From NCBI RefSeq assembly GCF_011045215.1, contig NZ_CP049201.1: a stretch of DNA of 64,000 bases. One strand, given 5' to 3'. Every line of letters starts with the position of its first letter. Within the stretch, counting starts at the first letter, position 1. Both the position numbers and the translations under genes were made by a program. The notes beneath the pieces were generated by a model. It saw nothing but the letters and a program-made list of their open reading frames with translations. It made no database searches and was not told the DNA's origin. Positions 34,935-44,484 of this stretch are shown piece by piece. This DNA is from Escherichia coli (GTDB lineage: Bacteria > Pseudomonadota > Gammaproteobacteria > Enterobacterales > Enterobacteriaceae).

Positions 34935-35056
34935 GCCGGATGCGACGCACGAGTGTTACGCCTGCCGCATCCGGCGATTTTCGTCGCTTACCCTAAATCC
35001 GCCATCAACATCTTCGATTTTACGTAGGTCGGATAAGGCGTCCACGCCGCATCCGA
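34935..35056. repeat. REP/BIME cluster between recD and argA
   Basis: Two REP-like palindromic units (GCCGGATGCGACGC...GCATCCGGC and GTAGGTCGGATAAGGCGTCCACGCCGCATCCGAC) and a roughly 50-bp direct repeat GATTTTCGTCGCTTACCCTAAATCCGCCAT. Confidence 0.7.
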
Positions 35057-35069
35057 CGATTTTCGTCGC

Positions 35070-36401
35070 TTACCCTAAATCCGCCATTAACACTTTGGAT
35101 TTACGCTGGTAGTTGTACAACTGCTTTTTGCTTTCGGGCAGTAAATCAATATCCACTGGGGTAAATCCACGTTCCTGGAACCAGTGAATACTGCGCGTGG
35201 TCAGCACAAACAATTTGCTTAAGCCGCTCTGCTTCGCCTGAGCGGCAATGCGTTCCAGCAGAACTTCACCCCTTGATGAACTGCGGTAATCCGGGTGAAC
35301 TGCCACACAGGCCATTTCCCCAATCTTCTCTTCCGGGAACGGATAGAGCGCGGCGCAGGCAATAGTCGTGTTATCGCGCTGAATAATGGTGAATTTGTCG
35401 ATTTCCATCTCCAGCTGCTCGCGAGAACGGCGTACCAGAATACCTTGCTGCTCCAGCGGGCGAATCAACTCCAGAATACCGCCAATATCGTTGATTGTTG
35501 CGCGACGAATCTGCTCGGCGCTTTCCATCACAATCTGCGTACCGATACCGTCGCGTGAGAACAACTCTTGCAACAGCGCGCCATCTTCCTGATAACTGAT
35601 TAAATGACAGCGACGCACGCCGCTGCGGCAGGCTTTCACTGCGCCACGCAAAAAGCGCACCGTACCGGAGTTGTAATCACCTTTCTCTTCCTGGGCTTCT
35701 ACCCGCGCTTGCGCTTCGTTAGGGAAAAGTTCGGAGACAATATCACCGTCGTCATTAGTGACGCCCTGGGAAGAGCAAAAACCAATCATCTTTTCAGCTT
35801 TCAGTTTGATGGCCAGTTGAGTGGCAATCTCTTCCGAGGTCAGATTAAAGCTCTCGCCAGTGACTGAAACAGCGACCGGCCCCATTAGCACTATTGCACC
35901 GCTGTCCAGTTGACGATGGATCGCGTCTTCATCAATCCGCCGGATACGCCCGCTATGGCAGTAATCCACGCCGTCATCGACGCCCAGCGGCTGGGCAATA
36001 ATAAAATTGCCACTGACGACGTTGATATGCGCGCCCTGCAGCGGCGTGTTATTGAGACTCATCGACAGGCGAGCCGTAATATCCAGTTGCAATGTTCCCG
36101 CAGCCTGCTTCACCAGTTCCAGTGTTTTGGCGTCGGTCACACGTATATTCTTGTGATACAGCGGTTCGTGGTGATGCGCAGCCAGATTTGCGTCGATCTG
36201 CGGACGTGCGCCATAGACCACCACCAGACGGATGCCGAGGCTGTGCAACAACCCGATATCATTAACGATACTGGAGAAATTCTCATGCTCAATGGCTTCA
36301 CCGCCGAGCATGATGACAAACGTTTTTCCCCGGTGGGTATTGATATAGGGAACCGAATGGCGGAATCCCTCGACCAGCTCGGTTTTACGTTCCTTTACCA
36401 C
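35070..36401 (-). CDS. argA: N-acetylglutamate synthase
   Basis: ORF trimmed to the GTG start giving [20 protein letters not shown] (443 aa). Confidence 0.93.
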
Positions 36402-37959: not shown

Positions 37960-38036
<77 letters not shown>

Positions 38037-39376: not shown

Positions 39377-39560
39377 CAGGGTGAGGGATAACCTCACATC
39401 CTGATTATTGACTAAGTGCGCGTTGTTCATGCCGGATGCGGCGTGAACGCCTTATCCAGCCTACAAATCATGCAAATCCAAAATATTGCAGGAGTTATGT
39501 AGGCCTGATAAGCGTAGCGCATCAGGCATTTATGCGTTTAGGGTGAGGGATAACCTCGCC
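39377..39560. repeat. BIME/RIP-like REP cluster between mltA and tcdA
   Basis: REP GCCGGATGCGGCGTGAACGCCTTATCCAGCCTAC and inverted REP GTAGGCCTGATAAGCGTAGCGCATCAGGC, flanked by two copies of GGGTGAGGGATAACCTC. Confidence 0.7.
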
Positions 39561-42086: not shown

Positions 42087-42277
42087 GGTACTCCTCGGCT
42101 TGATGCACCGATCGTGACGCAAAATTCACTTTGATACAAGGAGAGTGCTAACCATCAGAATTATCTGGATATCCTGGCGAAGCCGCGTCAGTAACATATG
42201 CTGAATAGTGTTAGGCGTTAATTTTAGCCTGTTAATCAATACTATTAAGATTTATTAATCGCTTTAAGGAGAAGATG

Positions 42278-42505
42278 ATGAAAAAGACTGCCGCAATTAT
42301 TTCTGCCTGTATGCTGACTTTTGCCCTGAGCGCCTGTTCCGGTTCGAACTATGTGATGCACACCAATGACGGACGTACCATCGTCTCTGACGGCAAACCA
42401 CAGACTGATAACGATACCGGTATGATTTCGTATAAAGACGCTAATGGCAGCAAACAGCAGATCAACCGTACCGACGTGAAAGAGATGGTCGAACTGGATC
42501 AGTAA
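42278..42505 (+). CDS. ygdI: small lipoprotein (DUF903), paralogue of ygdR
   Basis: 75-aa ORF from the second Met, lipobox LSAC; clear similarity to YgdR. Confidence 0.88.
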   Translation: MKKTAAIISACMLTFALSACSGSNYVMHTNDGRTIVSDGKPQTDNDTGMISYKDANGSKQQINRTDVKEMVELDQ

Positions 42506-42524
42506 TTCGCGATCGCAAGGTAAT

Positions 42525-43232
42525 AAATATCCTCCGGCATAGCCGGAGGTTTTTCAAATGCGCCTATAAGGCTCTCTTACCAGCCGCGCCCTAACAGGCG
42601 CACACGATCTGACATTTGCATCCAACTTCGTTACTTACGGCCCGTAAACGGGCTGCCCGGATAGGGAATCGATAACTGCTCTCCCATTTCATCCTCTTCA
42701 AGCTGGTGCTTTATGTAATCCTGTATCTTCGCCGTGTTCTTACCCACCGTATCGACGTAGTACCCTCTGCACCAGAACTCCCTGTTCCTGTATTTGAATT
42801 TCAAATCCCCAAACTGCTCATAAAGCATCAGACTGCTTTTCCCTTTCAGATATCCCATAAAGCCGGATACGCTCATTTTGGGCGGGATCTCCACAAGCAT
42901 ATGGATATGATCTGCACAGCATTCAGCTTCAAGAATCCGTACGCTTTTCCACTCACACAGCTTTCTCAAAATACTGCCTATTGCTCTACGCTTCTCTCTG
43001 TAGAACACTTGTCTTCGGTATTTTGGCGCAAAAACTATGTGATATTTACAGTTCCATCGGGTGTGCGCTAAGCTCTTTTCGTTCCCCATTGGGACCCCCT
43101 TTTGATTTCTTGTTTGACACTTGCAGTTGCCAGACCGCAAGGTGTTTTAACAAATCAAAAGGGGTTTTAATAACTGGCTCAAAGCTGAAAGCTTTCCGGA
43201 ACCCCCAGCCTAGCTGGGGGTTTTCTGTGCAC
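42525..43232 (-). mobile_element. IS200 insertion sequence (IS200/IS605 family); ends approximate to within about 10 bp
   Basis: Encodes a 152-aa IS200-type Y1/HUH transposase; similar GC-rich subterminal hairpins at both ends (CCCCCAGC-CTA-GCTGGGGG at 43202-43220; CCTCCGGC-ATA-GCCGGAGG at 42531-42549); stem-loop sequestering the tnpA RBS; total about 708 bp. Confidence 0.85.
42631..43089 (-). CDS. tnpA: IS200 transposase TnpA (Y1 HUH transposase)
   Basis: MGNEKSLAHTRWNCKYHIVFAPKYRR...HIHMLVEIPP (HuH motif), 152 aa from the internal Met of the track ORF. Confidence 0.9.
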   Translation of the reverse strand: MGNEKSLAHTRWNCKYHIVFAPKYRRQVFYREKRRAIGSILRKLCEWKSVRILEAECCADHIHMLVEIPPKMSVSGFMGYLKGKSSLMLYEQFGDLKFKYRNREFWCRGYYVDTVGKNTAKIQDYIKHQLEEDEMGEQLSIPYPGSPFTGRK

Positions 43233-43438
43233 AAAAAAAAGCACCGCAATTAGGCGGTGCTACATTAATCACTATGGACAGACAGGGTAAATGTACAGGA
43301 AGTGAAAAAAGGTAGCTTTGCTACCATGGTCTGAATCGCAGACCAATTGCAAACACAACAACACAACATCACAACCGTAAGCCAAAAGTTCACCAGAACA
43401 CGCATTCCGATAAAACTTTTCGTTCCGGCTCAGGAAGT
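43233..43438 (-). ncRNA. gcvB: GcvB small RNA
   Basis: Minus strand reads ACTTCCTGAGCCGGAACGAAAAG...GTTGTGATGTTGTGTTGTTGTGTTTGCAATTGG...GCACCGCCTAATTGCGGTGCT plus T8; about 206 nt; divergent from gcvA. Confidence 0.9.
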
Positions 43439-43566: not shown

Positions 43567-44484
43567 ATGTCTAAACGATTACCACCGCTAAATGCCTTAC
43601 GAGTTTTTGATGCCGCAGCACGCCATTTAAGTTTCACTCGCGCAGCAGAAGAGCTTTTTGTGACCCAGGCCGCAGTAAGTCATCAAATCAAGTCTCTTGA
43701 GGATTTTCTGGGGCTAAAACTGTTCCGCCGCCGTAATCGTTCACTCCTGCTGACCGAGGAAGGTCAAAGCTATTTCCTCGATATCAAAGAGATATTTTCG
43801 CAATTAACCGAAGCGACGCGTAAACTCCAGGCCCGTAGCGCCAAGGGGGCGTTGACGGTCAGTTTACTCCCCAGTTTCGCCATTCATTGGTTGGTTCCGC
43901 GACTTTCCAGCTTTAATTCAGCTTATCCGGGAATTGACGTTCGAATCCAGGCGGTTGATCGTCAGGAAGATAAGCTGGCGGATGATGTTGATGTGGCGAT
44001 ATTTTATGGTCGGGGCAACTGGCCGGGGCTACGGGTGGAAAAACTGTACGCCGAATATTTATTGCCGGTGTGTTCGCCGCTACTGCTGACTGGCGAAAAA
44101 CCCTTGAAGACCCCGGAAGATCTGGCTAAACATACGTTATTACATGATGCGTCACGCCGTGACTGGCAGACATATACCCGACAGTTGGGGTTAAATCATA
44201 TCAACGTGCAGCAAGGGCCAATTTTTAGCCATAGCGCCATGGTGCTGCAAGCGGCTATCCACGGGCAGGGAGTGGCGCTGGCAAATAACGTGATGGCGCA
44301 ATCTGAAATTGAAGCCGGACGTCTTGTTTGCCCGTTTAATGATGTTCTGGTCAGTAAAAACGCTTTTTATCTGGTTTGTCATGACAGCCAGGCAGAACTG
44401 GGTAAAATAGCCGCCTTTCGCCAATGGATCCTGGCGAAAGCCGCTGCTGAACAAGAAAAATTCCGCTTTCGTTATGAACAATAA
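43567..44484 (+). CDS. gcvA: glycine cleavage system transcriptional activator (LysR family)
   Basis: 305-aa ORF, N-terminal HTH MSKRLPPLNALRVFDAAARHLSFTRAAEEL. Confidence 0.96.
   Translation: MSKRLPPLNALRVFDAAARHLSFTRAAEELFVTQAAVSHQIKSLEDFLGLKLFRRRNRSLLLTEEGQSYFLDIKEIFSQLTEATRKLQARSAKGALTVSLLPSFAIHWLVPRLSSFNSAYPGIDVRIQAVDRQEDKLADDVDVAIFYGRGNWPGLRVEKLYAEYLLPVCSPLLLTGEKPLKTPEDLAKHTLLHDASRRDWQTYTRQLGLNHINVQQGPIFSHSAMVLQAAIHGQGVALANNVMAQSEIEAGRLVCPFNDVLVSKNAFYLVCHDSQAELGKIAAFRQWILAKAAAEQEKFRFRYEQ

Follow-up and report, generated by a model that had tools for sequence, protein, structure and literature searches.

The window, by which we mean the whole 64-kb stretch of DNA that was analysed, is collinear with positions 2.92-2.985 Mb of Escherichia coli K-12 MG1655 in reverse orientation, and the sole large difference between the two is the segment 42522-43232. 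Around this segment the local order is csdA (- strand), ygdI (+ strand), a 0.7-kb block with a single long ORF on the - strand, gcvB, and gcvA (+ strand). The features are collected in Table 1. The lipoprotein gene ygdI differs from its K-12 counterpart b2809 by 2 nucleotides, which lead to one amino-acid change, N58S; the ORF list puts its start one ATG further 5', at 42275. The sRNA gene gcvB is identical to K-12 b4443 at 206 of 206 positions. It matches its Rfam family in sequence and structure, is divergent from gcvA and ends in an intrinsic terminator, the hairpin and all eight T of which are retained. The T-run (43233-43240, on the - strand) stops exactly at the boundary of the 0.7-kb block.

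Table 1. Features at the ygdI-gcvB locus, in positions of the 64-kb window
Feature	Position	Strand	Evidence or remark
ygdI CDS, DUF903 lipoprotein, intact	42278..42505	+	Base-for-base alignment to K-12 b2809
IS200C element (709-bp core 42524-43232)	42522..43232	-	Net +711 bp relative to K-12
Right-end subterminal hairpin, 8 bp stem, 3-nt loop	42531..42549	both	Terminator scan and ssDNA folds
tnpA, 152-aa Y1 (HUH) transposase, with stop codon	42631..43089	-	Pfam, NCBIfam and PDB matches
5'UTR stem-loop over the tnpA ribosome-binding site	43096..43164	-	Inverted repeat and fold
Rfam RF01405 STnc490, IS200 left-end regulatory region	43099..43222	-	146.4 bits (gathering threshold 56), full model 1-124
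Left-end subterminal hairpin, perfect 10 bp stem	43200..43222	both	Inverted repeat and ssDNA fold
gcvB sRNA, complete	43233..43438	-	Rfam RF00022, 199 bits, full length
gcvB terminator hairpin	43240-43261	-	Flagged by terminator scan
gcvA, LysR-type regulator, divergent from gcvB	43567..44484	+	ORF; collinear with K-12 b2808

A complete IS200C element between ygdI and gcvB

A 708-bp query covering the block is 99.7% identical to its best copy and 99.4-99.7% identical to copies that are annotated as IS200C in RefSeq, where the transposase of near-identical copies carries the label 'IS200/IS605-like element IS200C family transposase'. The best place in each of 775 E. coli records is at least 99% identical to the query, and at this level of sequence identity a chance match may be regarded as excluded. 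The 709-bp core agrees in length and in both ends with seven other E. coli copies, from which it differs at 2-7 positions, and the nearest E. coli relative, which lies elsewhere, differs by only 2 bases. At 709-711 bp the element has the size of about 0.7 kb that is typical of the IS200 group, and like other members of that group it carries tnpA and no tnpB; tnpA is the only ORF of the element with a family match, the others being overlapping frames that find no support. Terminal inverted repeats are absent, and similar subterminal hairpins lie on the same strand near both ends, as in the rest of the IS200/IS605 family. A truncated or decayed element was considered and rejected, as the ORF, both ends and the length of the core agree with those of other copies.

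The tnpA frame runs uninterrupted from its ATG at 43089 (the protein queries started one codon upstream, at 43092). Its product matches Pfam Y1_Tnp (PF01797) with an E-value of 4.5e-38 over residues 2-121 of the 121 in the model, and the NCBIfam equivalog NF033573 (transpos_IS200) with 147.7 bits against a cutoff of 55, in agreement with the 152-residue Y1/HUH transposase recognised in the preliminary description. The protein aligns to the solved structures 2EC2, 2F5G, 2A6M, 2VJU and 2XM3. In two alignments, His61-Ile62-His63 falls on the DHIH motif of 2EC2 and of the 2F4F/2F5G sequence, and Tyr125, the catalytic tyrosine, together with Gln129 (Y-x3-Q) falls on the Y..Q of the same proteins. 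Six of the seven copies compared (WP_000526135.1) differ from the window protein at one residue, with Lys134 in place of Glu134, while the translation of the remaining copy, from strain GF4-3, is identical to it. IS200 has been described as nearly dormant (PMC4513863).

The two ends carry the repeats CCTCCGGCATAGCCGGAGGTTTT (42531-42553) and CCCCCAGCCTAGCTGGGGGTTTT (43202-43224), which are in direct orientation and 78% alike. As single-stranded DNA both end hairpins fold better than nearly all shuffled sequences, with z-scores between -3.1 and -4.9, so that the similar hairpins that had been noticed at the two ends hold up in both sequence and fold. For the right-end hairpin the fold energies are -10 kcal/mol (- strand, z -3.2) and -9.9 kcal/mol (+ strand, z -3.1). 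After it come TTTTT on the + strand and ATATTTATT on the - strand, and it resembles a terminator on both. On the + strand it lies 26 nt past the ygdI stop codon, where, as had been proposed, it now occupies the position of the ygdI terminator. The left-end hairpin of IS200 acts as a bidirectional terminator against transcription coming in from outside (PMC4513863, PMC5435999), and that of the Salmonella element terminates about 85% of upstream transcripts (PMC5435999). On the tnpA-sense strand GAAAA stands directly 5' of both end hairpins.

Further inside the left end, the two 16-nt arms of the 5'UTR stem-loop (43096-43111 and 43149-43164) are 94% complementary. The stem-loop is present in the minimum-energy fold of the tnpA 5'UTR (z -4.2), where it pairs the Shine-Dalgarno stretch AAAAGGGG; the claim that a stem-loop hides the tnpA ribosome-binding site is borne out to this extent, and the function of the structure has been described for Salmonella IS200 (PMC4513863). 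By homology, the + strand opposite the stem-loop probably encodes the antisense RNA art200, within about 43084-43170. Terminator hairpin, Shine-Dalgarno stem-loop and antisense region together make up the left-end regulatory set of an IS200-type element.

IS200C copies that cover at least 80% of the query are found in 2063 of 5426 complete E. coli genomes (about 38%), at up to 35 places per genome; within the 64-kb window no further copy and no other insertion sequence was found. This lack of other insertion sequences, together with the collinearity with K-12, makes Shigella an unlikely source. By contrast with the element, the arrangement ygdI-IS-gcvB was found in none of the 5426 complete genomes by megablast at a query coverage of at least 80%, and the exact insertion junction was absent from the metagenome contigs that were scanned. 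The flanks reach at best 98.8% identity among the complete E. coli genomes (24.5 kb of flank), and the source lineage is therefore not represented in that set. The element had been taken to mark a strain other than K-12 or a recent transposition. The flanks, at 97.8-99.3% identity to MG1655, agree with a different strain, while the element itself, present in over a third of the complete genomes, is a weak marker. On the age of the transposition, the data show the absence of this insertion from the complete genomes and of its junction from the metagenomes, and a recent event is one possible reading. Both the element and its type of placement are already known, and it is the particular site between ygdI and gcvB alone that is new.

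The empty site and the boundaries of the element

In MG1655 the site is empty (...caaggtAAAAAAAAgcaccgc), as had been expected, with 16 bp between the ygdI stop codon and the annotated 3' end of gcvB, and the junction reads ...cagTAAttcgcgatcgcaaggtAAAAAAAAgcaccgc... That K-12 has no IS200 at all, as the preliminary description held, is probable and agrees with Table 3 of PMC2943607, where IS200-derived RNAs are given as missing from the K-12 genome. The junctions in the window, on the + strand, are ...caaggtAA[taaatatcc...ctgtgcac]AAAAAAAAgcaccgc, where the inner brackets enclose the core, and the net gain is 711 bp. Together with the RefSeq annotation of IS200C and the match to Rfam STnc490, this comparison upholds the view that a complete IS200-type element sits between ygdI and the 3' end of gcvB. 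The right boundary is 43232, as in the preliminary description; the left boundary had been placed at 42525 and is instead 42522 or 42524, a shift of 1-3 bp, so that the boundaries are fixed to within 2 bp.

The remaining 2 bp stem from an AA dinucleotide that is found on either side of the 709-bp core on the + strand. Read in the tnpA sense, the empty site is ...GGTGC-T8 / ACCTTGCG and the occupied site is ...GGTGC-T8 / GTGCACAG...GGATATTTA-TT / ACCTTGCG. Positions 42522-42523 (AA on the + strand, TT in the tnpA sense) may close the right end or may be duplicated target, and two readings would fit the sequence: an element of 711 bp that ends in ...TTTATT and was inserted without duplication, or one of 709 bp with TT duplicated. 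The absence of a target duplication, which had been claimed from the outset, is thus consistent with the net gain of 711 bp, while the AA on both sides agrees equally well with a duplication of 2 bp. TT follows ...ATATTTA in all eight E. coli copies and in all 53 other copies with both ends readable. One Yersinia pestis copy (L083) has CT as its left flank and TT as its right flank, which favours the TT as belonging to the element. Two copies at the sodA terminator were set against the K-12 empty site: one (L010) agrees with the 711-bp model without duplication, and the other (L003) leaves 4 bases unexplained. The copy at gyrB (L002) is unusable for such a comparison because the K-12 gyrB terminator differs. 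From these sequences it would seem likely that IS200C inserts without a target duplication.

We conclude, with a probability of about 0.9, that the region is a structurally complete IS200C element of the IS200/IS605 family, IS200 group, which was inserted 3' of the gcvB terminator T-run and in the same orientation as gcvB.

Placement at terminators and how it may arise

The left end of the element begins right after the gcvB terminator's final T, and tnpA is co-oriented with gcvB. The same is found for all eight E. coli copies that were compared, in each of which the left end abuts the T-run of a terminator and the element is co-oriented with the terminated gene; these genes are gcvB, gyrB, sodA (two insertion points), ycdU, cheW, cspE and fabF. 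Because six of the eight copies had been chosen from matches with flanks like those of the query, a wider sample of flanks was taken. An exact scan with the 26-nt block of the left-end hairpin, over one genome per species, gave at least 120 loci. Those among the matches listed come from Y. pestis (IS1541), Vibrio ruber and other Vibrio, Brenneria, Pluralibacter, Edwardsiella and Budvicia, and from metagenome-assembled genomes of Oxalobacter, Mailhella, Desulfovibrio, Bacillota, Peptococcaceae and others. Pooled with the E. coli sites, the matches listed provide 125 distinct left-end flanks from at least nine element lineages, with Y. pestis accounting for 57 of the 125.

A flank was counted as terminator-like if the foot of a stable hairpin lay no more than 10 nt from the boundary and five or more of the last 8 nt were T. 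This was so for 91% of the 125 flanks among the matches listed, against 1.3% of random positions in the same loci; at control positions matched for the T-run, where T-richness is set by the matching, the hairpin was found in 24%. In the same 91% the hairpin and T-run immediately precede the left end when the tnpA-sense strand is read. A strict rule that demands a perfect stem gave 74% of the 117 non-tandem flanks from the scan (again among the matches listed) against 0.52% of random positions, and the median fold energy was -18.2 kcal/mol for the listed IS flanks, -7.8 kcal/mol for random positions and -5.8 kcal/mol for the T-run-matched controls. In Y. pestis there are also head-to-tail tandem copies, in which one left end follows directly after the right end and TT of another copy. 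The site between ygdI and gcvB is therefore a typical one for IS200, with an intrinsic terminator whose T-run leads straight into the left end, a point that the preliminary description did not note. A recent preprint (2025-26) reports the association of IS200 with terminators statistically. Besides this preprint, our literature search, outside which papers in subscription journals may lie, found no paper that describes terminator targeting by IS200 and none that gives a mechanism for it.

In IS608 and ISDra2, TnpA recognises the subterminal hairpins of one DNA strand and cuts this strand out in circular form; the circle is then inserted 3' of a short single-stranded target, which comes to abut the left end (PMC5027513, PMC2806898). 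By homology with these elements we infer a single-strand mechanism for the window copy also, in which IS200C would have been pasted by 'peel and paste' immediately 3' of the gcvB terminator T-run in the orientation of gcvB. The right end of the element consists of a hairpin and a 9-nt T-rich tail that ends in TT, and the target of a hairpin and a 7-8-nt T-run that also ends in TT. A terminator may thus be mistaken for a right end of the element. The GAAAA stretch ahead of each end hairpin could in turn pair with the T-rich cleavage or target site, in the manner of the guide bases of IS608. Tentatively, and with the chances somewhat against the proposal as a whole, we suggest that IS200-group transposases may read terminators structurally, with the terminator as a mimic of the right end, an A-rich guide and a precise, co-oriented paste, and that the single-stranded DNA possibly comes from terminating RNA polymerase.

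The strand on which the copy lies bears on the last of these points. A bias of the active strand towards the lagging-strand template has been reported for the IS200/IS605 family (PMC5027513), as a statistical rather than a strict rule. The + strand of the window is G-rich (GC skew +0.044, positive in seven of eight bins), in agreement with the K-12 map position in a replichore that is replicated toward lower coordinates. With tnpA on the - strand, this puts the tnpA-sense strand on the leading-strand template. The window copy thus has the orientation opposite to the reported bias, though a single copy says little about it. It lies on this template because gcvB is a head-on gene, which suggests that the orientation of the terminator, and not the polarity of the fork, set the orientation of IS200C here. 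Behind a head-on sRNA gene the non-template strand at terminating RNA polymerase would be a possible source of single-stranded DNA for a copy on the leading-strand template, in addition to the replication fork.

The pattern might also come from survivorship only, if IS200 inserted at roughly any T-rich place and only the harmless copies at the ends of terminators persisted. IS200 has been recorded within genes, as in hisD984 (cited in PMC4513863), and the 24% of T-run-matched controls that pass the hairpin test mean that the background is not negligible. Selection alone, however, would permit both orientations and any intergenic position, whereas the eight E. coli copies are all co-oriented with the upstream terminated gene and 91% of the 125 listed sites have the hairpin and T-run immediately before the left end in the tnpA sense. 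The listed sites also have a median flank fold energy of -18.2 kcal/mol against -5.8 kcal/mol in the T-run-matched controls, and the tandem copies take the right end of another copy as their site. The survival of harmless insertions could partly stand in for true targeting, but we consider it unlikely to account for the whole of the pattern.

Two further explanations concern the window copy itself. That the element is ancestral at ygdI-gcvB and was lost by precise excision from K-12 and other strains would be compatible with the peel-and-paste reaction, in which excision is precise (PMC5027513), so that an empty site on its own is the same whether it was never occupied or was vacated. Against such a history, none of 5426 complete E. 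coli genomes is occupied at this site, a scan of the metagenome collection did not find the exact junction, and only 2 bases separate the copy from its nearest E. coli relative; we give it next to no credence. It is also very improbable that the element has been co-opted for regulation, whether as a terminator of ygdI, as insulation of gcvB from convergent transcription or through sRNAs (a fragment of the tnpA 5'UTR, or art200) that act on host genes. The right-end hairpin with its five T does look a better ygdI terminator than the gcvB terminator read in reverse, and an RNA derived from the tnpA 5'UTR regulates invF in Salmonella (PMC5435999). The same structures, however, are found in every IS200 copy, whatever its location, and an insertion that only a single lineage carries, with over 5400 genomes compared, gives no sign of having been selected.

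Consequences and comparison with known systems

Most likely the insertion of IS200C is neutral, because neither ygdI nor gcvB with its terminator has been altered, ygdI would have a new terminator, and tnpA would be silent. On this account ygdI would now use the right-end hairpin and T5 as a canonical terminator, while the gcvB terminator, the left-end hairpin, the Shine-Dalgarno stem-loop and the antisense RNA art200 would together keep tnpA from being expressed. As a global regulator of amino-acid transport, gcvB is left untouched, and the insertion may serve as a marker of its lineage. The target rule of IS200 has long been given as unknown or 'AT-rich'. More widely, elements of this group lie in many bacteria at the exact end of terminator T-runs, where they would persist quietly, shielded from transcription from outside. 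Annotation pipelines should expect IS200 copies directly behind the terminators of sRNAs and genes.

Compared with the other IS200C copies of E. coli in RefSeq, the window copy is the same in core length, ends and 152-residue TnpA, and differs in location alone. The IS200 of Salmonella enterica is a different isoform, for which 707 bp is quoted as against 709-711 bp here, with the same layout of the left end: its hairpin spans nt 12-34 and its stem-loop nt 69-138 (PMC4513863), and the corresponding structures of the window copy, counted from 43232, span nt 11-33 and 69-137. IS1541 of Y. pestis shares with the window copy the 26-nt left-end hairpin block, the right end CCGGAGGATATTTA followed by TT, and a placement after a hairpin and T-run. 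It differs in having a core of 708 bp and GTGCCCAG instead of GTGCACAG as its first bases, and it is present in far higher copy number, tandem copies included.

The transposases of IS608 (Helicobacter pylori) and ISDra2 (Deinococcus radiodurans) are homologous Y1 HUH proteins, which the window TnpA matches with E-values of about 5e-19 (2A6M and 2VJU) and 1.7e-16 (2XM3). These elements, too, have subterminal hairpins instead of terminal inverted repeats. They insert without duplication 3' of a short target that adjoins the left end, as the window copy probably did also. They also carry tnpB, whereas the window IS200C has tnpA only. Their targets are TTAC or TTGAT, and a target hairpin is not reported to be required; that of the window copy is a terminator hairpin with its T-run, and the orientation of the window copy is opposite to their lagging-strand rule. 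A further parallel in site choice is one of analogy only. Group IIC introns (bacterial class C) home to positions immediately past the hairpins of intrinsic terminators; built from a ribozyme and a reverse transcriptase, they are unrelated in sequence and mechanism to a DNA transposase, and they provide an independent case of a mobile element that uses terminators as a safe site defined by structure.

IS200C among Escherichia coli genomes

A match of some kind to IS200C, the insertion sequence between ygdI and gcvB, was found in 3096 of the 5426 complete E. coli genomes in the comparison collection, with coverage of at least 80% in 2063 of these and partial matches alone in approximately 1000; plasmid-borne matches occupy 1287 places. 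Two strains of E. coli each carry an IS200C copy (L003 and L010) between sodA and kdgT, in both cases behind the same sodA terminator. As the two insertion points differ by a few bases, these copies represent independent hits on one terminator. When L003 is set against the empty site of K-12 MG1655 (K-12), 4 bases are left over, unexplained.

The source lineage and its differences from K-12

For the 24.5-kb segment leading up to the element, the top identity to any of the 5426 genomes was only 98.8%. The source of the window is an E. coli-like lineage without a close relative in this collection. There is a single gene for the initiator tRNA-Met, versus the three tandem copies (metZ, metW and metV) at the corresponding place in K-12. 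At the argA/recD junction a stretch of ~58 bp is doubled, the two copies being separated by a REP-like spacer of ~23 bp (gtaggtcggataaggcgtccacgccgcatccg), and K-12 has a single copy. The rest of the 64-kb window is collinear with K-12.

Features of the window discussed in the text
Feature	Position	Strand	Remark
Segment compared with E. coli genomes	18000-42524		
argA/recD junction	34967-35106		
Initiator tRNA-Met gene	37960-38036		
ES036 (CssrF) sRNA	39464-39506	+	Rfam match, 46.5 bits (gathering score 37.6)
STnc490	43099-43222		Rfam match, left end of IS200C

The left end of the element

STnc490, also called art200, has been described as antisense to the 5'UTR of the transposase gene tnpA (PMC4513863). 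Since the Rfam match scored 146 bits on the tnpA-sense strand, against a weak 18 bits on the opposite strand, the Rfam model seems to represent the left end of IS200 in its sense orientation.

Among the matches listed from an exact scan with the 26-nt left-end hairpin block (one genome per species), identical blocks (L014-L069) are present on MAG contigs assigned to very distant phyla (Oxalobacter, Mailhella, Desulfovibrio, Bacillota, Peptococcaceae, Saccharibacteria and Elusimicrobiaceae). They are mostly at contig ends and the first bases of the element differ from lineage to lineage, with the block here too following sites with a hairpin and a T-run. Horizontal spread or mis-binning may account for the occurrence of the block in such distant phyla.

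In Yersinia pestis NCTC5923, copies of the IS200-group element IS1541 (L075, L076, L078, L092 and L122) are arranged in head-to-tail tandem with the junction ...GGATATTTA-TT(T)-GTGCCCAG..., the next copy using the right end of the preceding copy as its insertion site.
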